Source: Cyanophora paradoxa CCMP329 (Eukaryota; Plantae; Glaucophyta). Taken from it: a stretch of 49,903 nt of DNA. The position numbers and the translations under genes were made by a program. The stretch is from the NCBI GenBank assembly GCA_004431415.1, contig QPMI01000670.1, positions 1 to 49,903 of the forward strand. Direction: 5' to 3'. Position 1 is the first letter of the stretch; the number at the start of each line of letters is the position of its first letter. The notes beneath the pieces are model-generated. The model ran no database searches. It worked only from the letters and a program-made list of their open reading frames with translations, and was not told the origin of the DNA. Below are positions 28,481-49,903 of the stretch, one piece after another.

Positions 28481-30782
28481 TCATGACCGGCCCCCGGCCC
28501 CGGCCCCGGCCCCGGGTGCCGGCGCCCCTCAGGGGTCCCTCGCGCTCCGTTGAATTCGAACCATGACCTGTACAGGATGGCCACGCTAGTAGTCGCGTCC
28601 ACCATCACATAGGCCTGCAAAGTGCATATCGTTTTGGATTTTTGGTTTCAATATGTCGTTGCACTCTGTATCAGTCATGATCACTGAGTACCATATTAGC
28701 TAGTACTCCCAACTGTACCGCAGTGCCCATGTGTGCCCTCTTTCGTTTTCGCCTAGTTCGAGGTTATATCGCCCCCTGAACAGTGCTAGTGTGATCAGCA
28801 GTGCTAGAGGTAGCTTATGTTGCTCTCGTACCTCACAAATCGGTTTCCAGCTGCAGGCCCTGAGGCCCTGAGGACCGCAGAGTGATCTCGCATAGCTCAT
28901 TTCACAAAACTATGTTGAAAGAACAAACTTAAGCTTGAAAACATAGAGCACGTTCTGATCGCCGCTGAGCATATGCATGCCATGATTGCAAGCGAGCCGC
29001 TGATCATGAGCTGCAGCCGCTGATCACTATTAATGGCTGTCGAGGACGAGCTCGAGCGCGACGACAGTGAGTGATCGGTCTTCCGGGGACGGGTACGGGT
29101 AACAACGGGTCCTAACACGCGCGCTTTCACGCCGTGACGACCAGCTCAAGCTCAAACTTGAAACGACTCTCACAAGCCAGCAGATTTTGAGCCTGCAGAA
29201 TTCGAATGAGCCCGGACGTTGCACATGCCGGCGGCGCCGGCGCTGACGGAGATCCAACCGCGGGAAGCGCGAGAGCTCGGCGTGCGAACGTTGGACGACG
29301 CTGGCGTTCGCCCTGGCCACGATAGGGCTGGTGCGAACGTAGTAGGTTGAACTTCGCCAGGCTGTCGAAACAAGCGACGCAGGCGCTGGGTTTGGTCATT
29401 GGATATCGGGGCCGCTATCGTACGCTGCCGTTCAACGATTGGGGGTGCGTACGATTGGGGTTCAACGTTATTGGAAACGGGGTAGGGCCCCCGTTTTCGG
29501 TAACTTACAAAATGACGAGTCTGCTCATCTCCCGATCCAGCTCCGAGCTCTTAACCACGTGTTAGTGCATGCATGAGAGCCCGGAATTCGTTGTCAGAAC
29601 CCGGAAAGAGCGGAATGCTGTGCGGAAAAAAGGACCGGACCCTTTCCTGGACTATCCCTTGCAGCGCCTGATCCTGTGGTCGTATAGAGGCCGGACCAAG
29701 TGCATAAGAAAGCTCTTGCGATGCTCGACAGAGCATGTCATACATGCCAGCGCTCGGGAAGCAGCGCGTGGCGCGCTAGGCCGCATCAAGTACCTGTTGT
29801 ACCGAACGCGGAAAAAAATGGCTCCTGCGAGTTGGATTTTTTCGAGTCTCGAGGACCACCGGGTACACATACGCACAATTTAGCCGTCAACCTAGCCGAC
29901 AGGTTCGCTAGCTGGCCAGCGTAGCTAGCTATAGCTGAGCTCCGGCTAGCGGCTTGCTGGACTTGCGCGCGAGGCGTCGACGTCACCAGCGCGCTAGCAC
30001 TGCCTAGCAGTGCACTGCGGCAGGCGCCGGTAGTGCGGGCGCGGCGCGGCGCCGGCAGTGCGGGCGCGGCGCCGCGCCGGCCGGCGGCAGTTGGCACTGA
30101 GACCGGCGATCGCTTGCACAGGAGCTGCTTCAAGTTCGTCGCACCAGCCAACGCCAACGCCTGCAGTGCGTGCCCGCCACCCGTAGCGCTGCGAGCTTGC
30201 TCGCATAGAGATTCTCTATTCAATTGGATCGCTAGATCTGCCCCGCGCATAGAGCGTTCTCATTGCTCGGCGATCGCTTTGTGTTCGGCGCCATACCCAG
30301 CGAGTCCGACCTCTAACAAAGAGCTGCTGGGCCGGCGATCGCTTCTGGGTTCTCAGTTCTAACGGTCGCCGCGGGCTTGACGTCCACCGCCTTCTCATTG
30401 GCCAAGCGATCGCTGATTTTCGGTGTCTTATGCCCGTGTCCGCAGCATGTCGACCCTCGGAGGGCCCTCTTTGGGGAGGAAGAGATGGAGTGGACCTCCA
30501 GCTCATCTCCCAACCCCCTTCCCAAGGGCGGCGTGGCGGTGGGTTGCCTCGGGGGCGGCCTCGGGCGCAGCATGGCAAGTGGCGGCGCTCGCTCCGGCCA
30601 TGAGCTTGTCCCCGCCCCTCCCCCTCCCCCCGGCCCGGCCCCTCCCCCCGGCCCGGCCCCTCCCCCCGGCCCGGCCCCTCCCCCCGGCCCGGCCCCCGGC
30701 CCGGCCCCTCCCCCCGGCCCGGCCCCTCCCCCGGCCCGCCCCTCCCCAGGCCCCGCCCTCCCCTCCTCCCGGCCCGAAGGCG

Positions 30783-31885
30783 GGAGGCGGCGCGGGAGGC
30801 GGCGCGGCGGGCGGCGCGGCGGGCGGCGCGGCGGGCGGCGCGGGGGCGGCGCAGCGGGCGGCGCGGGAGGCGGCGCGGCGGGCGGCGCGGCGGGCGGCAC
30901 GGCAGGCGGCGCGGCGGGCGGCGCGGCGGGCGGCGCGGCGGGCGGCGCGGCGGGCGGCGCGGCGGGCGGCGCGGGGGCGGCGCAGCGGGCGCGGCGCGGC
31001 GGGCGGCGCGGCGGGCGGCACGGCAGGCGGCGCGGCGGGCGGCGCGGCGGGCGGCGCGGCGGGCGGCGCGGCGGGCGGCGCGGCGGGCGGCGCGGGGGCG
31101 GCGCAGCGGGCGCGGCGCGGCGGGCGGCGCGGCGGCGGCGCGGCGGCGGCGCGGCGGGCAGCGCGGCGGCGCGGGGGGCGGCGCAGCGGGCGGCGCGGCG
31201 CGCGGCGCAGCGGGCGGCGCAGCGGGCGGCGCGGCGGGCGGCGCGGCGGGCGGCGCAGCGGGCGGGGCGGCGGGCGGGCGGCGGGCGGCGCGGCGGGCGG
31301 CGCGGCGGGCGGCGCGGGGGCGGCGCGGGGGCGGCGCAGCGGGCGCGGCGCGGCGGGCGGCGCGGCGGGCGGCGCGGCGGGCAGCGCGGCGGGCGGCGCG
31401 GCGGGCGACGCGGCGGGCGCAGCGGGCGGCGCGGCGGGCGGCGCAGCGGGCGGCGCAGCGGGCGGCGCGGCGGGCGGCGCGGCGGGCGGCGCGGGGGCGG
31501 CGCAGCGGGCGGCGCGGGAGGCGGCGCGGCGGGCGGCGCGGCGGGCGGCACGGCAGGCGGCGCGGCGGGCGGCGCGGCGGGCGGCGCGGCGGGCGGCGCG
31601 GGGGCGGCGCAGCGGGCGCGGCGCGGCGGGCGGCGCAGCGGGCGGGGCGGCGGGCGGGGCGGCGGGCGGCGCGGGGGCGGCGCGGCGGGCGGCGCGGGGG
31701 GCGGCGCGGGGGGCGGCGCAGCGGGCGGCGCGGCGGGCGGCGCGGCGGGCGGCGCGGCGGGCAGCGCGGCGGGCGGCGCGGCGGGCGACGCGGCGGGCGC
31801 AGCGGGCGGCGCGGCGGGCGGCGCAGCGGGCGGCGCAGCGGGCGGCGCGGGGGGCGGGCGGCGGGCGGCGCGGCGGGCGGCGCAG
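30783..31885. repeat. ~1.1-kb minisatellite, 12-bp unit GGCGCGGCGGGC (copy 1), preceded by an ~18-bp C-rich repeat
   Basis: Direct reading of the unit with variants such as GGCGCAGCGGGC and GGCACGGCAGGC. It produces the spurious APPA/RRAA/GGAA ORFs. Confidence 0.95.
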
Positions 31886-33580
31886 GCGGAAGGCGACAAG
31901 CACATGCACCCTTCGAGATCTGTGCGTTTCTGGGGAATTCTCGCCTCGATGGGGTCGGGTGGTATGCGCCGGGCACCACCAGCGCAGCCCAATGGACTGC
32001 GCACCATTTGTTGCGGTAGCAAAGGAATGGTTCCGCAAGCCGCTTGCGGCCGAGGAGGATCGGTTTGCCGACGCAGCTAGGCTAGATGAGCTAGTGGAGC
32101 GGTGCAAGCAGTTTGTAGGGCCTCAGTTGAACTTCCAGTGAGTGTAGAGGTCTTGAGAGGTTGCAATTTTGTTGACAAGTCAAATTTCGTCAATGTACCC
32201 CAGAGCCTTCGCTTTTTAGCCACCGAGCCCCAAGTTTGGGGGGGAATGAGTCGGGGGGGTACCCTGACCTTCCAAACTGAGGCGCGCGGCGTCGACGTAT
32301 ACGTACCGACGTCGACGTCGCAACTGCGGCGCGGATTGAAGGTCGCGCATTGCGCTTCACCGTGCGCGCGCTGTGCTCAGCCCCGCGGCGCCACGCCCGC
32401 CCCGCAGGCGACTTCGCCGCGCCCGCGCACGCGAGGAGTACACATCGCTGGCTTCATCGGCTCACCCGCGGCGCCGGCGGCGCGCTAGCTACACGCTTTC
32501 GCTTGTCCGAGGTGCACATCATCGAATTCTGCAGCCGTTGCCCCATCCTCGGCCGCTGTAAGGCGGCGCGCAGGGATTCGAGCTCTCAACCGGGTCTCAT
32601 GGCGTCGGCCGGCGGGCCCAGCGCAAGCACCTCTGAGTCAGTAGGTCCGTCCCGGAACCGCCCCTCGGTCCTGCCTGGGCGCGCTTTCTTCCGATCCTTC
32701 TAAAAACCGTGATTTCGGGGCGACATTTTGGCACTATGTTCACTATGCCCGCCGGCCATGGGCTCGAATCGGGCCGGGGTCTTTTTCAAGCGATCGCCGG
32801 CGCCGCGTCCGTCGTCCGGCGGTTCGCGCTAGCGATTGCCCCGGAGTACTCGGTACCAGGGCCTGGCGATCGCCGAAGCGATGAGAAGGCTCTCTGACCG
32901 GCGATCGCTTGCACAGGAGCTGCTTCAAGTTCGTCGCACCAGCCAACGCCAACGCCTGCAGTGCGTGCCCGCCACCCGTAGCGCTGCGAGCTTGCTCGCA
33001 TAGAGATTCTCTATTCAATTGGATCGCTAGATCTGCCCCGCGCATAGAGCGTTCTCATTGCTCGGCGATCGCTTTGTGTTCGGCGCCATACCCAGCGAGT
33101 CCGACCTCTAACAAAGAGCTGCTGGGCCGGCGATCGCTTCTGGGTTCTCAGTTCTAACGGTCGCCGCGGGCTTGACGTCCACCGCCTTCTCATTGGCCAA
33201 GCGATCGCTGATTTTCGGTGTCTTATGCCCGTGTCCGCAGCATGTCGACCCTCGGAGGGCCCTCTTTGGGAGGAAGAGATGGAGTGGACCTCCAGCTCAT
33301 CTCCCAACCCCCTTCCCAAGGGCGGCGTGGCGGTGGGTTGCCTCGGGGGCGGCCTCGGGCGCAGCATGGCAAGTGGCGGCGCTCGCTCCGGCCATGAGCT
33401 TGTCCCCGCCCCTCCCCCTCCCCCCGGCCCGGCCCCTCCCCCCGGCCCGGCCCCTCCCCCCGGCCCGGCCCCTCCCCCCGGCCCGGCCCCCGGCCCGGCC
33501 CCTCCCCCCGGCCCGGCCCCTCCCCCCGGCCCCGCCCCTCCCCCAGGCCCCGCCCCTCCCCCTCCTCCCGGCCCGAAGGC

Positions 33581-34685
33581 GGGAGGCGGCGCGGGAGGCG
33601 GCGCGGCGGGCGGCGCGGCGGGCGGCGCGGCGGGCGGCGCGGGGGCGGCGCAGCGGGCGGCGCGGGAGGCGGCGCGGCGGGCGGCGCGGCGGGCGGCACG
33701 GCAGGCGGCGCGGCGGGCGGCGCGGCGGGCGGCGCGGCGGGCGGCGCGGCGGGCGGCGCGGCGGGCGGCGCGGGGGCGGCGCAGCGGGCGCGGCGCGGCG
33801 GGCGGCGCGGCGGGCGGCACGGCAGGCGGCGCGGCGGGCGGCGCGGCGGGCGGCGCGGCGGGCGGCGCGGCGGGCGGCGCGGCGGGCGGCGCGGGGGCGG
33901 CGCAGCGGGCGCGGCGCGGCGGGCGGCGCGGCGGGCGGCGCGGCGGGCGGCGCGGCGGGCAGCGCGGCGGCGCGGGGGGCGGCGCAGCGGGCGGCGCGGC
34001 GCGCGGCGCAGCGGGCGGCGCAGCGGGCGGCGCGGCGGGCGGCGCGGCGGGCGGCGCAGCGGGCGGGGCGGCGGGCGGGCGGCGGGCGGCGCGGCGGGCG
34101 GCGCGGCGGGCGGCGCGGGGGGCGGCGCGGGGGGCGGCGCAGCGGGCGGCGCGGCGGGCGGCGCGGCGGGCGGCGCGGCGGGCAGCGCGGCGGGCGGCGC
34201 GGCGGGCGACGCGGCGGGCGCAGCGGGCGGCGCGGCGGGCGGCGCAGCGGGCGGCGCAGCGGGCGGCGCGGCGGGCGGCGCGGCGGGCGGCGCGGGGGCG
34301 GCGCAGCGGGCGGCGCGGGAGGCGGCGCGGCGGGCGGCGCGGCGGGCGGCACGGCAGGCGGCGCGGCGGGCGGCGCGGCGGGCGGCGCGGCGGGCGGCGC
34401 GGGGGGCGGCGCAGCGGGCGCGGCGCGGCGGGCGGCGCAGCGGGCGGGGCGGCGGGCGGGGCGGCGGGCGGCGCGGGGGCGGCGCGGCGGGCGGCGCGGG
34501 GGCGGCGCGGGGGCGGCGCAGCGGGCGGCGCGGCGGGCGGCGCGGCGGGCGGCGCGGCGGGCAGCGCGGCGGGCGGCGCGGCGGGCGACGCGGCGGGCGC
34601 AGCGGGCGGCGCGGCGGGCGGCGCAGCGGGCGGCGCAGCGGGCGGCGCGGGGCGGGGCGGCGGGCGGCGCGGCGGGCGGCGCAGG
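33581..34685. repeat. ~1.1-kb minisatellite, 12-bp unit GGCGCGGCGGGC (copy 2)
   Basis: Same unit and nearly the same variant order as copy 1. Confidence 0.95.
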
Positions 34686-36014
34686 CGGAAGGCGACAAGC
34701 ACATGCACCCTTCGAGATCTGTGCGTTTCTGGGGAATTCTCGCCTCGATGGGGTCGGGTGGTATGCGCCGGGCACCACCAGCGCAGCCCAATGGACTGCG
34801 CACCATTTGTTGCGGTAGCAAAGGAATGGTTCCGCAAGCCGCTTGCGGCCGAGGAGGATCGGTTTGCCGACGCAGCTAGGCTAGATGAGCTAGTGGAGCG
34901 GTGCAAGCAGTTTGTAGGGCCTCAGTTGAACTTCCAGTGAGTGTAGAGGTCTTGAGAGGTTGCAATTTTGTTGACAAGTCAAATTTCGTCAATGTACCCC
35001 AGAGCCTTCGCTTTTTAGCCACCGAGCCCCCAAGTTTGGGGGGGAATGAGTCGGGGGGGTACCCTGACCTTCCAAACTGAGGCGCGCGGCGTCGACGTAT
35101 ACGTACCGACGTCGACGTCGCAACTGCGGCGCGGATTGAAGGTCGCGCATTGCGCTTCACCGTGCGCGCGCTGTGCTCAGCCCCGCGGCGCCACGCCCGC
35201 CCCGCAGGCGACTTCGCCGCGCCCGCGCACGCGAGGAGTACACATCGCTGGCTTCATCGGCTCACCCGCGGCGCCGGCGGCGCGCTAGCTACACGCTTTC
35301 GCTTGTCCGAGGTGCACATCATCGAATTCTGCAGCCGTTGCCCCATCCTCGGCCGCTGTAAGGCGGCGCGCAGGGATTCGAGCTCTCAACCGGGTCTCAT
35401 GGCGTCGGCCGGCGGGCCCAGCGCAAGCACCTCTGAGTCAGTAGGTCCGTCCCGGAACCGCCCCTCGGTCCTGCCTGGGCGCGCTTTCTTCCGATCCTTC
35501 TAAAAACCGTGATTTCGGGGCGACATTTTGGCACTATGTTCACTATGCCCGCCGGCCATGGGCTCGAATCGGGCCGGGGTCTTTTTCAAGCGATCGCCGG
35601 CGCCGCGTCCGTCGTCCGGCGGTTCGCGCTAGCGATTGCCCCGGAGTACTCGGTACCAGGGCCTGGCGATCGCCGAAGCGATGAGAAGGCTCTTAGTCGA
35701 TCGCGACTCGCGAGTCGCGACGTCGACGTCGCGTCACGCACGGACTCGGACTACCTGGTATACTGTAGTACGTATACGCGACGCGACTCACCAGTGACTC
35801 TAGCTGGCAGTGAGCCAGCTGCAGTGAGTCACCACGAGAGTCACGCCGACTCAGGCATGATCACACGACGCGGTATACGTAGTGCGGTATACGCAGTACC
35901 CATGCGGTGCAAAGGTTTTTATTTCGAATTCTGTTGCAAAATTTCGTTCGTATACGTGGGCGTACGTACGTACGTACGCATGCAGGGCCGTGATGCAGCA
36001 CCGGTACCCACGCA

Positions 36015-36056
36015 GAAATTAGTGGACTGAAAATCTTGACTCAGTCCACTAATTTC
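36015..36056. repeat. Perfect 16-bp inverted repeat (hairpin) with a 10-nt loop
   Basis: GAAATTAGTGGACTGA-AAATCTTGAC-TCAGTCCACTAATTTC. Confidence 0.9.
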
Positions 36057-36135
36057 CGGCTCCACCATAATTCCCTAGCTCAGGCTAGCGGATGAGAAGC
36101 AGCCTTATATTACCCCGCAAAATTAGCGATACGCC

Positions 36136-36418
36136 TGTCGCGTGCGAGATTAGTGTGTCTAATCGTGCGCGCGGGAAGCCCGTGCGGAGTGCAAGCTCGG
36201 CAGGGCAGGGTTTGGCGAGTGCTGCTGCTGTTAGCCACCGGGATGGTAGACTGAGGGTGTACCCGTCCAGCTACGGCGTACCCCGACACACGCATACAAG
36301 TGACCGCGGCGCTCTAACTAGCCTAGGCGCCGTCGATCTAGCAGCACGAAGGCTGCGCACATCATCTAGAACCCTAGCGGCTCACAAACGAGCATCCGCT
36401 ATAATGTCGGATGCGACA
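36136..36418 (-). repeat. Putative 3' LTR (283 bp)
   Basis: Ends TGTCGCGT...ATGCGACA (7/8 inverted match), directly adjacent to the PPT. Left flank ACGCC is the candidate TSD. The partner LTR is not visible. Confidence 0.7.
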
Positions 36419-36430
36419 ACTCCTCCTCTC
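36419..36430 (-). promoter_or_regulatory. Polypurine tract of the retrotransposon
   Basis: Minus strand reads GAGAGGAGGAGT directly followed by TGTCGCAT. Confidence 0.75.
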
Positions 36431-36560
36431 GGATCCCGCGTCCGCGCGGGTCTACGCCCTAAGGCGAACAGAAAGAGGGCCGGGGAAGCCGGGAATTTGA
36501 TCGAGCCTAAGCTCTCTATACAACGCGACCCCGGCCGCTATATACAAATGCTCGGAGCTA

Positions 36561-37651: not shown

Positions 37652-40600
37652 TCATGCTGCTCCCGCCGGGGCCGCCGGCGCTGCGGCCGCGGCTCCCGGT
37701 GCACCCGCCGCCCGCGGCCGCCCTCGGGCCGGCCGCGCGGGCGCGTTCGCATCGCGCATGCGGAACGGGATCATGCAATCGATGTGCACGATCGTCTCGC
37801 GGGTGTCGCGGGCCTTCTGGCGGACAGCGCCCACGGCGCCGTAGGGCCGGGCCAGGCCGCGCACGACGTACGTGTACCCGCCCGGGTGCACGTCCATGAC
37901 GGTGAACGGGCCGACCCAGGAGTTAAACAACCCCTTGTCACGGTCGCCCAGCCAGCACAGGACTTTGTCGCCCACTTCGAAGCGGCGACGGTCCGGCAGG
38001 TCACCCGTCCGGTGCACCATTTGGCGGCGGTACCAGCGGCGGTGCTCGCGGACCGCGTCATCGCGGCTCTTCGCGGCGCGCACTACGGTCGCGACGTAGT
38101 CGGCGTAGCTAAGGGTGTCGAGCATTTCGACCCCGAAGCGCACGTCCGCGGCAGCGTGAGCTCGTGCCCCAGGTGCAGGAGCGCGGGCGAGTAGCCCGTG
38201 GCCGCGTGCACGGTCGTGCGGAGCGCCAGCTGCACTTCGTGCACGTGCTGGTCCCACTCGTGCATCGGCTCGCGCTCGGCGCGGCACGCCGCGTGGAGCA
38301 GCGTCTTCACGACGCCTCCCAGCCGCTCTACCAGCCCATTCGTCGAATGGTGGTACGCCGCGGCGTAAATGAAACGAGTCCCGAGCTTCCGGAAGTACTC
38401 GTTGAACGGGCCGCCCTTCAGGCTGGACCCATTGTCCATGAGGAGGCGCAGCGGCACACCCTCATTCGAGACGAAGTCTCGGCCCATCTCGAGCATGGAC
38501 CAGCCGTCCAGGTCGGCCTTTGGGTACAGCCGCGTGTACTTGTCCCACGCGTTCACCCAGGCGACCAAATAGCGGTCGCCGCGCGGCGTCGGGTCAAGGT
38601 GGAACACGTCCACCTGCCACAAGTCATTCCGGCCCTCGGCCTCGATGACTGCGATCGCGGTTCGCCGCGGCTTCACAGCCTTGGCGAACTGGCAGCAGGG
38701 GCAGCTCCGCACGTAGCGGGCTACGGCTGCGAGCATGCCCGGCCACCAGAACCTCAGCAGGATCCGGCGGGCGACGATCGAGGCGCCGCGGTGGCCCCAC
38801 CCATCGTGGTAAGCGTACAGGACGCGGTCCTGCCAGGACTCAGGCAGGACGGGCACGAAGCGGCCGTGAGGCGCGACCGGGCGGCGGACAAGCACGCCGT
38901 CGGTGTCCACGTCGAATTTCCCAGCGAATCCGACGAAGGCCGCCTTGGCCTGACTGCAGAGGTAGCAGTCGCCCGTGTGGCAAGAGGCGCGCGTGCAGCG
39001 GGCCTCGTTCACACCGTTCTCTAGCCAGGAGAACAGCTTGCGGCACAGCGGGTCCGCCTTCTGCGCGGCGAGCAGCCTGACTCGCCGGGCAGGGAACATG
39101 TGCCGCAGGGTCTCGGGCAAGGGCCCGTCGAGGGAAGGCGGCGGAGCGCAATCCCAAGTGTCCTGGACCAGCTCGAGCAAGCGCGGCTTGCGGCGGTCTC
39201 GGACCTCGCCCAGCTCAGGGCCGGGGGCGATGGCGCTGGACGAGAGGACCTCTCGTTCCAGGCCCGCGGCCGGGCCGCCACTTGAGCCGGCGTCGCCGCT
39301 CGAGGGCGCCTCGGAGGCGGCCGGCGGCTCAGAGGAGCCGGCCGTCGCGGCGGCGGTCGATGCGGCCGCGGAGGACGACGCCGCCGGGGCGCCGCCCTCG
39401 GGCCCCTCATCAGGGTCGTCCTGGTGAGGGTACAGCGGCGGGCCGCAGCGCCAGTGGCGCGGGTTGTCCGCTTTGCGGGGCGTCTTGCCCGGGCGCGGGG
39501 CCTCAGGCGGTCGCAGGTCGCGCGGCAGGGGCGCGATGGGCCCCTCGTAGCGCCGCGGCCCCAAGGGGAGCCGGCGGCGTACGTGCTCGAGGAGGGCCAC
39601 GGGGAACCCATCCTCGTCGAGCTCGGGCTCCTGCGCCTGGCGCGGGGTCTCAGGCTCGGGCACAGGCGGCGCGGCCTCGCCGTCGGAGCCCAGCTCCATC
39701 GGGTCGGACTCGGGCGCCGGCGGCGGGCTCGGAGAGCGCGGGGCCGGGGGCAGGCCTTGCGCGACGGCGAGGCGGTGCCACTCGTCCACCCCTTGGCGCA
39801 CTTCAGCCCAGGTGGTGGGCTTCTGGCCGCGCCGAGTGGGCGGCCGGCCTGCGGCAGCGCCGGCGCCGCTGGCAGGGGCGCCTCCTGCCCCGCGGCAGGA
39901 GCTCGGGGCTCGGCGGCGCCGGGGCCCCCGCGGGCTCAGCCTCAGCGCGCGCCGGCACGGCTCGGGGCGTGCGTGCGGGCAGGGGACGGGCTCGTCGTCA
40001 GAGCCCTCCTGAAAAGCCTCAGGCGGCGCGCGCGTCCGACGCGGGCGCGGCCCTGGCGGGCTGGACGTCCCGCCTTGCGGCGGGAGCGCCCTCGAAGGCG
40101 AGCTGGCGCCGGAGGCGGGCCTGTCGCCGCGCGACGAGGATCTCCGCCCGGCTGGGCGGAGCCGCGGGCGCCGCAGCCTCGGCGGGCTCGGACGCTGATG
40201 CGGGGCCGGCGGCGTGGCCTCGGCCGGCTCGTCGGCGAGCTCGGTCAGGCGGGGGCCCGGCGGGGCCTCCACCGCTACCCGGGCCTCCACAGCGCTTTCG
40301 GCGGCGAGAGCGACTGCAAACAGCGGCAGAGGCTCGTCAAGGTCGCCGGGCTGGGGCACGCCGTGCCCCGTGGCGCCAGCCAGCGCGTCGGGCGCAGCCG
40401 AGCTGCCGTCGGCGCCGCCGGGCGCGAGAACCGGGTGGTTCAGCGGGGGCCGCGAGCAGGCGTCGGGCCCTCCGTTGTTGCGCCCCGCGCGGTACTCTAC
40501 GACAAAGTCGTAGGACTGCAGGAGGAGGGACCAGCGTCCCAGCCTTCCCGAGGTCGCCTCGCGCGAGCGCAACCACTGGAGCGCCTGGTGGTCCGTCCGG

Positions 40601-41700
40601 ACCAGGAACTGGGGCCCTCCCAGGAGGAAGTGCCGCCAGTATTTTATTGCCCATACAACCGCCAGGCACTCGAGCTCGGTGGCGGTGTAGTTCCGCTCAG
40701 CGGGCGCCAGCGTTCGACTGATGAACGCGATGGGCCGCTCACGGGCGGGCGAGCCGCCGTCGGACTGCGACAGGATCGCGCCGATGGCGTACGTCGACGC
40801 GTCGGTCGACAGGATGAAGGGCCGCTCAAAGTCCGGGTACCCGAGTACCAGATCTTCTAGCAGGGCGGCCTTCAGCGCCTCAAAGGCGGCTTGGTGGACC
40901 TCGGTCCATTGCCACACGGCGTCCCGGAGCAGCAAGCGCTGCAGCGGGTGGGTGACACGGGCGAACCCGTTCACGAAACGCCGGTAGTACCCAGCCAAGC
41001 CCAGGAACGACCGCAATTGGTCAGCGTTCGCAGGCGGCGGGTACTGGCGAATGAACGCCAGCTTCGCGGGGTCCTGGCGGATCCCTTCGGCCGAGACGAG
41101 GTGCCCGAGCAAGGCCACCTCCGCCACCCCGAAGCGGCACTTGGAGGGCTTCAGGCGCAAGTTCGCCGGCATGATAGCGCGGAACAGGGCCTCGAGGTCC
41201 AGCAGGTGCTGGGGCACGCTTGGCGAGAACACCGTGATATCGTCGATATACGCGGTGACGCAAGTCGTGAGCAGGGGGCCGAGGATGGCCGTCACGGCGC
41301 GCGAGAAGGCGGCCGGCCCGTTGGTCACGCCAAACGGGGTCACGCGCCACTCGTAGTGGCCCCAGGGCACCACGAAGGCCGTGTACTGCCGGGACGCGGG
41401 GTCCAGCGGCAGCTGCCAGAATCCCGCCGTCGCGTCGACGGTCGAGAAGATCATGGACCCCCGCAGGCGGTCCAGCTGATCGTCAATCCGTGGCAAGGGA
41501 AAGACATCGCGCTCGGTGATCGCATTTAAGCGTCGGTAATCGACGCAGAACCGCCAGGTGCCGTCCTTCTTAGGAGCGAGCACGACCGGCGAGCCATAGG
41601 CGGCTTGCGAGGGCTGGATCAGGCCCAGCTCAAGGAGCCGCTTTATTTCGTCACGGGCGAAGGCCTCGGCGTGCGGGCTTACACGCCGCGGGGCGTGAAG
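37652..41700 (-). CDS. pol: Pol: reverse transcriptase, RNase H, integrase (HHCC, DDE, GPF); apparent frameshifts
   Basis: KKDGTWRFCVDYRRLN, PFGVTNGP, YIDD (about 41239-41250), TDAS, TELECLAVVW, TDHQAL, HDGWGH...CPCC, QVD...MDNG...NGLVER, WVGPF. Confidence 0.93.
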
Positions 41701-43046
41701 ACGGGCAGCCGTGAGGTCAATCGGATCACGTGCTCGTAATGGAGGAGATTGGCCGTGCCCTCAGTGGCCGTGACCGAGTCGGCGAACGCGCGCGAGTAGC
41801 GCTTCAGCAGAGCCTCTAGCTCGGCGCGTTCCGTAGCGCTCATCGCCGGATGCGAGCCGCATTCCGGATCTTCGCGCGTGCACGGTTCCACTCCTCCTCT
41901 TCGGAAGACGACGTCCCCGTCGCTTCCGGCGGTGCCCGCGGGGCGCCACCGTGGGAGGGGCCAGGCGCGGGCCCGGAGGGGCGGCTCGCAGCGGCGCCTT
42001 GCCCTTGTCCTTGCGCGCGCGGCGGAGGACTCGGCTACGGAGGGCGCGGGCGCTTCCGTTGTCCGGACAGAGCAGCCGGGGCCTGCCAGCGCTGCTGGCG
42101 CCGGTGCAGGCGGGCGAGCGGCCCCGCTCGGCGCGGGCGCCGGCGGCTCAGCTGCCTCGGCAGCGAGATTTATTTGATCCCCGGAGGGATTGGTGGGGAC
42201 TGCGTTAGCCCCCTGGCGTGCAGCGCGAGCCGCGTGGGCGCGGCGGCGTGCGGCGCGTTCAGCGCGGCGGGCGGGCCTGGTGCGCTCGCGCTCCTCGGGC
42301 GAGGTCCAGCCAAGGTACCCGTCCTCGCGCTCGCGTTCAGAGTCGGTGTCCGAGGACACGGGCTCGTCACAAAGCGCGAGGCCCTCCATTGTGACAATGG
42401 GGACGTCTTCGCCCTCACTGCCGTCGTCGCGCAGCATGCGGACGAACAAGGGAGGCGCGCTCGGCGCAGGCTCCTGCTCAGTGGCTACAGTCGCTTCGGA
42501 CTGCCGGGCGGCGGGTGCCGCGAAAATAGGCCCTGGAGCGGGGTGCTGGGGCGGCGTGGTGCCCTCAGCTGCCGTGTAAGCCGCAGCCGTTCGATTGGCT
42601 CGGCGGCGCATCGCGCGGAAGCCTTGCCCTCGCTTAGGGTAGAAGGCTCGCAGCGTGCGAATGAAAGAGTCGGCGACGGTGCGCGCCGACGCGTCGTCGG
42701 GCGGCGGGTCGAACCCAAAGTCGCCGGGCGGCAGGTTATTAGCCTCCGCCACCGCTACAATGGCCCCAGCGGGAAGCAGGACGGGCTCATTGGCGGGGTT
42801 TACTAGTCGCACGTGCAGGCTGCCGCCCTCGGCAGGCCGGCGGTGCAACTGGTGGGGCGCGAGTACCCCGAGCGCTGACAGGAGTCAGGCGCCGGCCCGA
42901 CGGCGAGCGTCGGGGCCTGGTCCGCTGGCGGCGCAGGGCCGTCCAACACGCAGCGGACCATCCATTCGCGGGCGTCCTTTAGGACGACGGGGCGGAGCAC
43001 CCGGACAAGGAGAGGCCCCTTTGATTGTCCGGGCACAGAAAAGGGA

Positions 43047-43450
43047 TCACGTGGGGCGGAAGTGCGCGTCGCGCGCGTGCAGGCACCAGCCCGAGCTGGT
43101 GGTGTCAATCCGCCCCTCGATCCTCATGATCGTGCCGATGCCCAGGAGCATGTCGGCGTTCGGGCCGAGCGAGCCGTCGGGGACGACGTACACCGCTCGC
43201 GAGACGTACACATCGCCGAAGCGCAGCACGACATGAGCAATCTCAGCCGTGATCGTGGCGTGGTGGAGGAAGGCCCGGAGGACCTTCACACCCGTGTAGC
43301 GCGTGCCGGGCGGCATGTGCTTTTTCTCGCCAACATCTCCCATTGCGCCAGTGTCAAAAATGAATTTGACGCGCGTGCTCTCGCCGAGCGTGCCGTCGGC
43401 ATGCAAGGCATAGACGAAGCCCGGGCACTGCAGGAGCAGGCGCCGGAAAT
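43047..43450 (-). CDS. Retroviral-type aspartic protease domain
   Basis: FIFDTGAMGDV and a downstream DMLLGIG motif within ORF 43047-44309. Confidence 0.8.
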
Positions 43451-44556
43451 CGTGCGGGAGACCGTTGATCCCGTCGATAACTTTCGCGATCGGGACCGGG
43501 GCGTTCAGGCGGCCGTCGGGCGCGCCATCCGGGGACTCCGGGACCGCGAGGTCCGTGGGGCGGTCGGGGCCGTAGCCCACGAGTTCGTCAGGCTCAGGAG
43601 CCTGGAAGTGCAGCGCGGCGCGCTGCTTGCTGGAGCGGGCGTGGAGCCCCTCGGAGCGGCTCGTCGGAGCGGCAGAGGACTTGCGATCCGCTCCGTCGAT
43701 GACGGGCGTCGGCTCGCTGCCGGCAGCGGCGGAGGCCAAGGCGCGCTCGGCGATGGCCCGCGGCTGCAGTGCAGCGCGCGTCGCGAAGTCATCCTCATCG
43801 TCACCATCGCCGTAGATACGGAGAATGGCGCGGTGTGCGGGGCGGCAGCGGCCCTCGGCTTTGGCCTCCTGGGCGAGGCCGATGAGGCGCAGCAGTTCAG
43901 ATTCAATGCGATCGAACTGCTCCATGCCCGGGTAATTTGCGGCCCACACCGTCGCAGCGGCGTTCCGTGCCGCCCAAGAGGCGCCGCTCGGCAAGGTGGT
44001 GCCGGTGAGATCATGGCCCGCGGCCGTGGCGATCTCATCGAGCATCTCAGACAAGACGGCCGGCTGAGCGTTGCGCTCGAGCAGGAGCCGCAGGCGCGCG
44101 CGCCAGTTCTTGGCGGCCTGGTAGTGGGCACTGCCCACATTCTCGTCCGTGGCCGGCGGTGCCTGGCCGGAGCTCGAGCTGGCCGCGGGACCCGCAGGCG
44201 GGTACATGAGGCCGTGCGGCCAGTAATAGCCGTGCGGGCCGGCGATTTGCGGCAAGAGTGGGGGCGGCGGCAACCCCCAACCGGGTACGCGCGGCGGGGG
44301 CGGGCCCATCGACGCCGGGTACGGGTACGGGAACGGCGCGGGGGCCAGTTCCGCGGTGGACTGGGCAGCAACGCGGGCGCGCTTGCTGCGGCGCTCGGCC
44401 TCGGCGAGGAGGCGCTGGCGCGTGTCCTCGCCGGGTCCGGCTCGAACTCAAGGCCATGCTGGCGGGCATAGGCAGTGAATTCGGCGTCGTCCATGTCAGC
44501 CAGGTCGAGGGACTCAGGTCCCGTGGACGAGGTGCTGGGCAAGGTGCCGCGAACGG

Positions 44557-47500
44557 TCACGCGGCTGCCCTGCAGGATACGCGGCCGCTCGCGGCGCTGG
44601 CCGGTGGCGCCCGGCGGCTGCGTGCGCGTCGGGGCAGGGGAGCTCGACGACTCCTGCCGGGGCGACTCGGTGCGCTCGCGGGAAGCGGCGGCCTCGCGGC
44701 TCTGGCGGCGCCCGCGGCGGTCGCGGGAGCGCTCGCGCTTCGTCTCGCTCTGCTTCCTCGAGGGCGAGGGCGTGGCCGAGCGCTTGGGGGCAGGGCTGGG
44801 CTCGCGGGAGCCAGAGCCCGTGGTGCCCGAGGCAGAGGACGATGCCACAGGCTTCGCCTGGGCGGTCGCTGCCACGGCGTGGTCGGCCTGCTGCTGGGCG
44901 CGCAAGCTCGGGGGCAGATCCTCTGCCGTGTACCCGTTCCAGTTCTGGAGCAGCTCGGCGCGCAGCCGGTAGTGGAACGGCGTGATTGCCGCCACCGTGT
45001 CGCCGAGGCCGCTGGCCTCGGGGGGCGCAGGGAACGGCGCCGCGCCCTGCTGGGCGACAGTGTCCAGGGCGGGGGCGGGATAGCCGCTACCCGAGCGGGC
45101 AGGATGCGCTCAAGGCGGCGGACGGAAAGGAGGGGCTCGTCCTCCTGCTCGTACATGGCGAGAACAGCGCGCAGCTGCTTCGTCGCCGGCAGGCCCCAGA
45201 TCTGCAGCAGAGCGTCCGAGAGGCGCTTGCTGGCGTCCGCCGCATTGTCCAGCCAGGACGTATGCGTGGCGTTGGGGCGCGGCAGGTCTGGCATCGAGAG
45301 CCAGAACGCCGTGGTCAGCGGGAGCTGAGAGGCGATGACGAGAGCTGCGGACTCGTCAATCGACTCGCCGAGCTGGCCGCTCTTGACGTGCTGCAGGACG
45401 GCGTAAAGCTCGTCGCCGTCAGCGGAACGTGCATGGGCCCCAGCTGCTGCCTCGGCCGCGGAACGAGTGGCCGGGTCGGCGCGGTAGCAGGTGGACCACA
45501 TGAACTCGTATATGGCCGTCGGCCCCACAATGTGCATTTGGGGGTTGAATCCCGTGGCCGGCGCAGGCCGGGGCTGGTCGGGCAGCTCGTGCCCCAGCAC
45601 CCAGGCAGCCATGCTGTTCACATACCCCGCAAGCAGGGATGCGACGAACTCACGGGGCGGCAACGGGGACCACGTGGGTCCGTGCTTCTGCACGCCCGGG
45701 CAGACGACCGGGTATTTCCGGTGCCCGCGGTCCTTCGGATCGACGAGCGGGCGGGGCCGCTCGAACCCGAGCACGAACACGCGCCGAGGGAGGCGGTCGT
45801 ACTGGCGACGCGCCTCAGAGGGCGGGGCGTGCTGCATGGCCACGTGGGCGGGACCAAGCGAGCAGCGCGTGGCAGTCGTGCCGACGGGGTCGCCCATGAC
45901 ATCGACGTTGTTCACGTCGAGCTCAGTGCTCACGTGCTTCTCGCCCGTCTGGATCGGGGTTCCTGGCAGGAGGCCGCGGACCCGGGCATCGGGCTGGGCG
46001 ACGCCACGGATGCCGAAGCCCCTGCCGAAGCGGGGCTCGTGGAACACGACCAAGCGCTGCCCGCGCTTGGCGCGGTTGACCCCGATGGGCGCCTCGAACG
46101 TGTGCGGGCGAGCGAGGTACGCAAACGCCTGGCGGCACGTGTGGTGCAGGGCGGTGTTCAGCACCGAGTAGGCGCGCGTGATCGGCCCATCGAGGCGGTT
46201 TGCGGGGGTGGGCTCCGACGCGACCCACTGCATGATGGACTCGTCGAGCCCCATCATCGCCGCGACGTAGGGCAAGCCCTGAACGTCGGTGCCTTGCATG
46301 GACGTCGGTGCCGGTGGCACGGGCGGGCCATACAACATTACCGCGGCGGGGATGCCGCGGTTATGGCCCTCGACGTTTGCGATGAGCGTGGAGGCAAGGC
46401 AGTGCATGGCTGCATCAGCGTCGAGCGCGTTCGGGTGGAAACGCGTGACGACTGGGGCAGTCGCATTCACGCAGGGCGCGTCGGGCGGCCCGTTCTCGCC
46501 GAGGGTGAGCGGCACGAGCCGCGGAATAGCAGCCCACGGGTACTGCTCGGCCGTCGGATTGCGGGCCGGGCTACCGCCGAGCGGGTCGGGCAGCAGCACG
46601 CAGTACTTGTCGCAGTACCGGACGCGCTCGGGCGTGCCGTCGTACCACGTGCGGGCCCCAGCAGCAGGTGCCGCCGGCGTGGCCGTAGCAGTGGAGACCC
46701 CGGACGGTCCGGCGACAGGCGCAGCTGAGGAGCTGGCCATGGGCACGTCGCCCTCAGCGTCGCGATCGGCTTCGCTACGGCGGGCCTCGCCTTCCCAGTT
46801 GTCGAGCCACTGCACAAAGGGAAGGGAGCGAATTGGGGCGTTGCCGCCAATTCGGGCCTCGTGGATCTCGCCCAGCAGCCAATTAGCGCCTTCGACGACG
46901 GTGTCGTAGCAGCGGTAACTGGTGGCCAGCCACGAATCCGAGTCGTCCTTTGCGGCCTCGCGCTGGACGACCTCGGGAATTTCGAGGTTTGCCGGGTACG
47001 CCGGGGCGAGCGTACGGACGAGCTCCTCGCACCCCGGGTGCGAGGCGTTAACCATGTCATAGAAATAGCTAACGTCGTCCGGCAGCTTCATGCGACGTCG
47101 AGCTCATTGGGGTCGTCGGGCCAAAGATCCTCAGGATCAGGGGCCGAGCCAATACCCGAGCACTTGGTGACGGGGTGGCTGAGTTGGGCACCGCGGATTG
47201 CGAGCATCGCAATGCTCGAATCGGGGCCCTCCTGGAGGCGGTAATCGAGCTTGGCGATCGTCGCCGCAGCCTCGATCACGCAGGCGAGGGAGTGAGCCTC
47301 GGTGCGGTGAGCCAGGCGACCCAGCAGCAGGCGCTCGGGGCGCCGCAGGCCGCAGGCCCCCAGGAACCGGTCAAGGACTATGCCTTTAGGGCCCTCCTGG
47401 GCGAGTTCGCGAACGAGCAGCGTCTGCTTCGCGTCGTCGAGGCCGTTCGTGAAGAGCAGCCCATGGCGCGCTCTAGGTCACGGGGCTTGGCCGTCAAGTG

Positions 47501-47700
47501 GGCGTACCACTTTGTGAGCGGCATGAGCACCGGGCTCACGTAGCGGGGCAAGTAGGGCCCGCCCTCGCGCTCGCCCTCTTTCTCCACGTCCGTGGCAGGC
47601 ACGTGGTCATACGGCATGTAATCCAGTGCCCACGACTTCGTGGAGCACCGGGGTGGTGCCTGGGGCACGTCGCGGTCCGGAGAACCGAACGGCCCGAAAT
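44557..47700 (-). CDS. Unknown extra coding region between Gag and protease (includes the 844-aa ORF 44557-47091)
   Basis: Long complex-sequence ORF on the same strand as gag/pol; no family recognised. Confidence 0.7.
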
Positions 47701-48211
47701 AGGCGGGCTTCGAGGTGTCGCTGGCGTAGGGCGCGGAGCCCTGGCCAGGGTCGGAGCTCGGGGCGGACTCGGAGTCCGTGTCGAGCCGCTCGGCGTCGCT
47801 CTCCCCAAGCTCGGACTCCCCGGAGCCGTCCTCGCTGGCCGGGTTGGCGCAGCGGAGGTCCCGCTCGAACGCAGCCTCGCGAGTGGCATCGTCGAGGGCG
47901 CCAGCCGAGATGTCCGCCGCAGCGGCATCGAAGGCGGCCTGGTCGCGCGCCTTGGCGGCCATGGCAAGGGCGTCGGACGGCTGGCGGACCGCTGCAACGG
48001 CCGCAGCCTCGTCCGAGTCGGAATCCGTGCCCACGGGCATCACATGTACAGACAGCGACCGAATGGACGGGCCGCCCGGAGGGGCGCCGGCGTTCGGGTT
48101 GCCGCCTGCAGACGAGGAGCTGGCGCCACGCGCGCTCTCGTGCAGGGCGGCTGCTGCTGCATCACCTGCAGGTGCTGGAAGAATGCAGCCATGGCGGCCG
48201 AGTTCGGCGAG

Positions 48212-49903
48212 TCAGAGCGGGGCTCGTTCTCGGCGCGAACTTGGTTGAACCGGGGCCGCTGCCCGCGGTTCATGTCTGGCCGTAGCCCCGGCCGCGTCCG
48301 CCGCGGCCCTGTGACTCAGCGTCCGGCAGTCCCGGCGGATGTGGTCCAGAGACCCGCAGGTCCAGCAGCCCGGCTCACGGTCGTCCTGGGCGCTCTTCTC
48401 CTTGCCCTTCCCAGCGGGCGCTGGTTCGGGCCGGAGGCAGGGCGCGGGTGGCGCCGCCCCGGCTGTAGCCGCCGCCGCGGTCCGGCCGAAGCCGCCGCGG
48501 TCGTTGCGGTAGCCGCCGCGGGCGTACGGCTCCTGGCGGTGCCCGCCGCGGTGCGAGAACCCGCCGCGGGTCGGGCCGGGCTCGCTGCGCTCATCGGCGG
48601 CATCCTCCTCGCGCGCCGGCCGATCGCGGCGCCGCGCGCGCTTATCCGCAATCCCTTTCACCCACTCGGAGTATGGGATATTGGGGAAGGGGGCCGTGCC
48701 CCACACGCAGTTCCACGTAAAGTGGCAGCGGTCGAGGGCGGCATCTCCACGTGCATGCACAGGGGCATGGGACGTGGTCGTGCTCGGGTACCCCAGGCGC
48801 TCCTCGTCGGGTGCCGGCGACCCGCGACGGGCGCGCCCTGCGGAGCCTTCGTGCCCGGGGCCGCATTGACGGACTTGACGGGCACGGCTCGATGGGCTCG
48901 TCGCCGTCGTCGTCGCTGGCGGCGGCCGCTACCGGCGCCAGCTTGCGCACGCGGGCTTCTTAGCCTCCGGCGCCTCGAGTGCGGCCGTGGCCGTGGGGGC
49001 AGCACGGTGCGGCAGCCGTGCGTCTTGCACGCTGCGACGAAGATTTCGTCGAGCTGGAGCGGCGACAGGGCGCCGTCCTGTGCAAGGATGCGCTGCTGCA
49101 GCGCGGCGAGGAACGCGCGCAGAGTGCGCTCGTTCGCCTGGGCGAACCCGGCCATCCGAACATCGAGGTTCTGATATTCCGGGTCCTCGCTCGTCGAGCG
49201 GGCCTCGAGCGCAGTGCGCAGACACTCCGCATAGTACACGGCGAGGCGCTGGCCCTGGGCAGCGTGTGCTGCACTAGGGGCATGAACCAGTCATGCCATG
49301 AGCGCGGGTCCTCGCCCGTGTAGGCTCAGTGAGAGCCCGGCGGGCGCGTGCGGGCGCGTCTCATGAATCCATGCCGTGATCGTCGCGAGGAGCCCGGGGC
49401 ACGCAAGTACGAGTCACGCACGGCCACGATAGTGGCATGATCGCGCGCGCAGCTCTGCTGCAGCGCCAAGATTGCAGCCTCATCCTCGGCAGTCCGCAGA
49501 TCAGCCGGACAAGTTCGAGACGAGCGAGCAGGCGCGGTCACGCTCCAGGCCGCAATAGAGGCCTCATAGAGGTCGCGCTTACGCTCAATCTCGGCGCGGA
49601 GGGCGCGGGCGGATGCGCCCGACGATCACTCCGGCAAGCGCCTCAGACTTAGTATACTCCTGGCCGCCGGCAGTGTCCGGGCAAAGAGATACTTCGTCGG
49701 CTGAGCCGACTGGAAGTTCCGGACATCTTCCGGAACCGGTCACCGTCGGCGAGGCGCGGCTTCGCGGGAGGAAGGCGATCCGCGGGATCATCCTCCGCCG
49801 CAGCGGCGGTGCCAGCGAGCTGCACAGCAAGTTCGGCCTTCGCAGGCTCAACGTGCGCAAGTGCGGACAGCTGGCTACGGACTTCAGAACTGATCAGTTC
49901 AGA
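48212..49903 (-). CDS. gag: Gag (partial, frameshifted) with an RGG-rich tract and a CCHC zinc knuckle
   Basis: CWTCGSLDHIRRDC (48326-48367) preceded by RGGFSHRGGH...RGGYRNDRGGF; upstream helical segments such as YYAECLRTALEARSTSEDPEY. Confidence 0.75.

Follow-up and report, generated by a model that had tools for sequence, protein, structure and literature searches.

The window analysed here is the whole 49,903-nucleotide stretch of contig QPMI01000670.1 from the glaucophyte Cyanophora paradoxa CCMP329, and its minus strand carries a Ty3/gypsy element in which Pfam places a CCHC zinc knuckle, a protease, a reverse transcriptase (RT), an RNase H and an integrase in that order. Among solved RTs the closest is that of Ty3 (E 1e-85), with the next groups at 1e-53 and 6e-30. 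The knuckle lies at 48326-48367, with an RGG-rich stretch ahead of it (zf-CCHC, E 8e-5), and the protease, the best-conserved part of the first open reading frame (ORF1), at 43050-43640, with its Asp codon at 43355-43353; support for the protease from Pfam is weak, since Asp_protease_2 covers positions 3-87 of the 90-position model at E 0.12, under the cut-off. From the knuckle to the protease Asp there are 4,970 nt, or ~1,657 codons, which translation reads in shifting frames in this copy. An initial annotation of the window had noticed a large coding gap at this place, and the gap is real; its size, put at about 1,600 codons, fits the window copy, but the interval of the family is 2,439 codons. 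We refer to the coding sequence that fills this gap as the cargo. The GC content at third codon positions of the interval (0.78-0.89) is close to that of pol (0.84-0.89), and GC by codon position is alike in the two.

Gene models with cargo sequence occur on 16 contigs, all named Cyanophora paradoxa, and form three subfamilies by identity to the window: A (~95%, which includes the window), B (~60%) and C (~35%). P0018 (2,924 aa) and P0025 (2,964 aa) run from Gag through the protease as single models, and the order in sister copies is an acidic linker, block A (~560 aa), a linker, block B (~1,000 aa), a linker rich in serine/arginine (SR) and proline, block C (~100 aa) and the protease. In the window, all on the minus strand, the acidic low-complexity linker is at 47561-48325 (from translation and the charge profile of the sister models), a stump of block A, soluble and with no family match, at 47092-47560, the middle and C-terminal parts of block B at 45083-47089, the tail of block B followed by the basic SR-rich and Pro-rich linker at 44157-45082, and block C, a four-helix bundle, at 43857-44156.

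Two deletions and many single-base gaps have altered this copy. At the deletion joint, 47089-47092, contigs of all three DNA runs compared hold 2,154 letters (short-read contigs X1, X4 and X10; window shortfall 2,152 nt), which comprise the rest of block A, the linker and the first ~230 aa of block B, its best-conserved part, and model P0032 spans the joint with ~691 residues. At 45083, in the tail of block B, contigs of both DNA runs compared there carry 190 extra nt (contig pieces X10-5 and X4-12), and extra residues at that point are also found in P0005, P0024 and P0025. Short-read contigs from public runs span the entire interval, and against them the frame breaks between 48481 and 43052 each come down to one base missing from the window; these gaps may be assembly errors or decay. 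With the gaps seen in the short-read contigs added, the length comes to 7,317 nt and divides exactly into 2,439 codons of a single frame. The acidic linker, the SR/Pro-rich linker and the helical block of the initial annotation are all present, as is a globular block, but because of the deletion at 47089/47092 the globular block of 900 aa that it described is a chimera: ~150 aa from the start of block A run directly into the final two thirds of block B. P0008 and P0020 match the window copy, break points included. The stretch near 45083 that the window copy lacks is also skipped in P0001, and the deleted form may occur or have been assembled twice.

The cargo sits at the same place in all three subfamilies, and its conservation is on par with that of Gag and below that of the protease: in windows of 100 residues, identity between subfamilies A and C is ~23-53% for the cargo, 33-37% for the N-terminal part of Gag and 74-83% for the protease. 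Block C is 76% identical in subfamily B and 35% in subfamily C. In the substitution test, which covers 40 of the 82 differences between the window and the contigs, 25 of 40 changes are synonymous; within the cargo the share is 18 of 31, against an expectation of 26-35% (P 2e-4 to 7e-3), and the ratio of nonsynonymous to synonymous change (pN/pS) is 0.25-0.39. No membrane-spanning stretch was found by hydropathy in any of the eight proteins scanned, whose highest 19-residue values were 1.46-1.76.

Family searches agreed with the initial annotation that this conserved, in-frame sequence belongs to no known family. Pfam was blank for the cargo apart from one chance-level row (DUF6890, E 0.18), PHROGs, NCBIfam and PADLOC gave no match, and searches of PDB sequences were blank or at chance level. 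A block B profile built from two subfamilies and run with HMMER against 1.84 billion proteins gave seven matches, none of them a relative outside Cyanophora: six were models of the family itself and the seventh, a tandem-repeat protein (E 7e-4), was dropped as chance. This full search was made with block B, while block A was covered by a word search with its 129-aa stump; a word search with the three subfamilies returned one protein. Scans of viral and metagenome contigs gave no cargo relative, tblastn against plasmids gave two chance matches, and two of 401 bacterial genomes had short, chance-level matches only. No relative outside Cyanophora was thus found in the searches made, and the profile negatives, which rest on three independent sequences, are not strong. 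The literature yielded no description of the family, although a name for it may stand in Repbase, in papers behind a subscription or in the repeat libraries that accompany PMC6704402 and PMC12344493, all of which lay outside the search.

Structure prediction was informative for one block. The AlphaFold2 model of block B was unusable (predicted local distance difference test, pLDDT, 28), which makes its Foldseek list meaningless. Block C was predicted confidently as a four-helix bundle (pLDDT ~90 over residues 11-100), it had no match in BFVD or PDB by Foldseek at E <= 0.001, and its matches were to generic bundles (Z at most 6.6, VIA). In block B a GHNRGIP and an HxxR motif are nearly invariant. 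For block A the Atlas gave a weak lead to NACHT/AAA clusters (0.76-0.80). Two motifs noticed by eye were rejected: one in block A that resembles RNase III, because subfamily C has lost it, and one of the 2OG-Fe dioxygenase type, because it has no conserved HxD.

The end of ORF1 bears on how much cargo is made. ORF1 stops at 42981-42979, directly past the protease and ahead of the RT, and P0006, P0010, P0024 and P0025, which represent all three subfamilies, likewise end just past the protease. The cargo, which the initial annotation placed within Gag-Pol, is therefore not a minor domain of it, since it sits in a Gag-protease frame that stops before the RT. A candidate -1 frameshift signal at 42997-43045 on the minus strand consists of the heptamer C CCT TTT, in frame at 43045-43039, and a downstream hairpin at 43036-42997 (fold z -1.94); the -1 frame continues towards pol, and the IPF peptide at the heptamer is kept in all three subfamilies. 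The stop past the protease, the slippery heptamer and the hairpin together suggest that the cargo is made at the level of Gag, and we consider it quite probable that a -1 frameshift at C CCT TTT gives access to pol, in which case every Gag would carry cargo. Contigs of three runs guessed to be RNA meet the element in short pieces only, which bears neither way on its expression.

Release of blocks A, B and C by the element's own protease, at the flexible linkers, is also probable. By the protease cut-site rule, a candidate site near 48050 (minus strand), S.xVMPV after the knuckle, is kept within a variable linker in all three subfamilies. A second, L(H/R)F ahead of the protease near 43610 (minus strand), is likewise kept in all three, with Pro next in B and C. 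Ubiquitin-tail cleavage sites are not conserved: look-alikes occur in 3 of 11 proteins only and are not shared.

We are highly confident of the architecture, its conservation in three subfamilies, the synonymous excess, the stop of ORF1 after the protease, and the lack of membrane spans and detectable relatives. From these we propose, tentatively, that some 2,400 accessory residues would be made in a Gag-protease protein at the level of Gag, with a -1 frameshift leading to pol; that the protease would cut this protein at its flexible linkers into soluble blocks A, B and C; and that the freed blocks could protect both the RNA and the particle of the element against silencing by the host. As a whole this reading is plausible, and we rate it a little short of probable. 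Binding of the blocks to RNA of the element or to silencing factors of the host, with the basic SR linker acting as an RNA-binding or nuclear signal, is drawn from context and precedent and is possible rather than likely. C. paradoxa has 32% CpG methylation with methylated repeats (PMC12344493), abundant small RNAs and four RNA-dependent RNA polymerase homologues (PMC3700990), and retroelement accessory proteins that act on silencing or RNA export have been published (PMC6338049; PMC10309623).

Several points weigh against this proposal. The substitution test has none of its differences above position 45554, and in it a single copy is set against contigs that are themselves collapsed. The sister sequences come from gene models that skip stretches, and on DNA the 2,154 missing letters may contain stops. 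In P0006 and P0010 block A is followed at once by the protease, with most of the cargo missing, and some copies may lack most of it. The hairpin only modestly beats shuffled sequences, of which 7 in 200 are as stable, and Gag-level dosage of a protein of ~3,000 residues is unusual for a retrotransposon particle. The silencing role, in turn, is argued from host context and precedent.

Other explanations of the cargo can be set against the same evidence. A structural cargo, a scaffold or second shell present one-to-one with Gag for packaging a very long genomic RNA, appears unlikely to us. Its place in the ORF of Gag, probably at the same dosage, its rate of evolution, about that of Gag, and the lack of a confirmed catalytic signature would all suit such a role, but block C has no viral match in BFVD or PDB at the threshold given above and no capsid-like fold was seen for blocks A or B, though B gave no usable model and A had none. 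Decidedly unlikely is the idea that block B descends from a captured nucleic-acid enzyme, with a tyrosine recombinase-like fold or that of a superfamily 1 (SF1, UvrD-like) helicase, which is no longer catalytic and now only binds DNA or RNA, an explanation which concerns origin and could hold together with a counter-silencing role. By Atlas features, block B of the window is nearest to UvrD clusters (0.81-0.84), whereas block B of subfamily C is nearest to 30 unnamed bacterial clusters (0.95), with Phage_integrase at 0.88 and ResT/TelK at 0.87; these two leads conflict, and recognition under 2300 for both is weak by the tool's own grading. For the helicase, hhalign gave a profile-profile probability of 0.25% against the UvrD-family alignment, with 5.4% for the reversed control, and the alignment of the three subfamilies has neither a GKT Walker A nor a DE Walker B. 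The recombinase has in its favour that all three subfamilies retain R240 and H312-x-x-R315, but hhalign did not align R240 and H312/R315 to the tyrosine recombinase family, scored 0.2% against 28 recombinases and three Integrase_2 proteins (positive control 89.7%), and no GH...Y (H/W and nucleophile Tyr) is conserved after HxxR at the spacing expected of tyrosine recombinases; the two matches among the 401 bacterial genomes, too, were at chance level. At a separate locus, L134 (G002:C22:56603-60559), the neighbour of an Integrase_2 gene (970-aa frame) is a second recombinase frame of 502 aa, and the same contig has a UvrD_C_2 match a few kb off.

An env-like fusion protein within the cargo, as in planarian Burro elements, would occupy the same position as the env-like region of Burro, and we find it very improbable, given that all eight proteins scanned lack a membrane span, that no Pfam or PHROG match was obtained and that block C is a small helical bundle. 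We give hardly any credence to block B being a dead C5 cytosine methyltransferase (C5-MTase), which the initial annotation had raised as a weak speculation. LYG and LP.RV(F/Y).LG motifs are conserved, and gypsy elements with Dnmt3 are described for Klebsormidium (PMC5890265). Against it, hhalign gave 0.08% with 13 C5-MTases, no better than the reversed control (0.14%), there is no Pfam DNA_methylase match at E <= 1, FxGxG, PC and ENV occur in none of the three subfamilies, and NNV, taken earlier as one of the C5-MTase motifs, does not recur in B or C. Insertion of a nested element, an artefact of assembly and neutral drift have practically no likelihood as accounts of the interval: the window copy is indeed broken, and long GC-rich ORFs arise readily by chance, but all three subfamilies, even at 35% identity, have the cargo at the same position, and it is in frame, shows the synonymous excess and has no terminal repeats. 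As in the initial annotation, no internal long terminal repeat (LTR) or terminal inverted repeat was seen in the interval by self-BLAST and a repeat scan, and a nested insertion is ruled out.

Compared with canonical Ty3/gypsy elements, the Cyanophora element shares the order of protease, RT, RNase H and integrase, the CCHC Gag and an RT nearest to that of Ty3. In canonical elements the knuckle and protease normally lie close together and the frameshift normally comes before the protease. In the Cyanophora family 2,439 codons separate knuckle from protease, and the reading frame breaks past the protease, as in the gag-pro/pol layout of alpharetroviruses. The closest published build is that of the planarian Burro/GYPSM1 elements, in which a CCHC Gag is followed by thousands of in-frame accessory residues and then the protease; half of Burro ORF1 was at first unannotated (PMC6431247). 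In-frame cargo between the CCHC knuckle and the protease is accordingly known, but the Cyanophora cargo is an orphan. The Burro cargo includes MATH, SUMO-like, BIR, ankyrin, BCL2-like and env domains (PMC6431247). In Cyanophora, at the sequence level, no Pfam match to MATH, BIR, ankyrin, BCL2-like or SUMO-like domains was obtained at E <= 1 in the window ORFs and the sister models. The Cyanophora ORF1 also differs in stopping after the protease, in lacking a membrane span and in its glaucophyte host. We do not file the element as a Burro member, despite the like build, because the named domains of Burro are all missing.

Other large retroelements resemble it in part. Ogre and other LTR elements with extra ORFs are also large and carry extra coding sequence of unknown function, but theirs is in separate ORFs or downstream of pol (PMC6431247), and that of Cyanophora is fused inside Gag-protease. 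Retrotransposons with DNA methyltransferase (DNMT) or viral SF1 helicase domains have accessory domains fused in the polyprotein and proposed to act on silencing, yet those domains can be assigned to known families and have their catalytic motifs complete (PMC5890265; PMC6338049), and the Cyanophora cargo is unlike them on both counts. CERV of the C. elegans element Cer1 is likewise a lineage-restricted gypsy accessory protein with no outside homologue, required for export of Cer1 genomic RNA; it has 517 aa and comes from a spliced mRNA and an ORF after pol (PMC10309623), and its likeness to the Cyanophora cargo is by description only.

The cargo includes ~1,700 folded-looking residues that have been under purifying selection as long as Gag and have no detectable relative, which makes it a candidate for new folds and for a new retroelement counter-defence in a repeat-methylating, small-RNA-rich host. 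A gag-cargo-pro/pol layout would give it the dosage of capsid and challenges limits on Gag size, and giant Gags of the Burro type extend past planarians. The available text of the C. paradoxa genome paper gives 1.77% LTRs and 11.5% unknown repeats, and with so low an LTR count and so many unknown repeats, such elements may hide among gene models called hypothetical. We regard it as somewhat unlikely that this glaucophyte gypsy represents a giant-Gag lineage in which each capsid subunit brings two large proteins, of new fold or diverged beyond recognition from recombinase or helicase, as a counter-silencing apparatus; if true, it would give the earliest-branching plastid lineage its first system of this kind.

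The rest of the element completes the locus. The Gag N-terminal helical region, capsid-like by inference, is at 48950-49903 on the minus strand and its start codon lies just past the end of the window; P0006, P0018 and P0026 start four residues ahead of the first codon in the window, and the region has no Pfam Gag match. A second Cys/His motif of Gag (CxxC...H...C) lies upstream of the knuckle, at 48690-48790 (minus strand), and all three subfamilies keep it. Self-BLAST within the window, which ends at the start of gag, found no paired repeat. The pol region, with spacer, RT, RNase H, a low-complexity insert and integrase (Pfam), occupies 37655-42978 on the same strand. Its low-complexity inserts are at 39100-40400, between RNase H and integrase, and at 41800-42880, between protease and RT, and a Cys-rich patch lies near 38990, all on the minus strand. 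Burro has a dUTPase-like region between protease and RT; two short pieces searched here had no Pfam match, although by eye there may be some resemblance. Contig depth over 35500-36460 is several-fold that over pol, which we do not take as copy number, and this stretch may be the 3' LTR or another repeat. A ~2.8-kb tandem duplication at 30093-35693, 99% identical, adjoins the element downstream, with a GC-rich 12-nt array in each unit.

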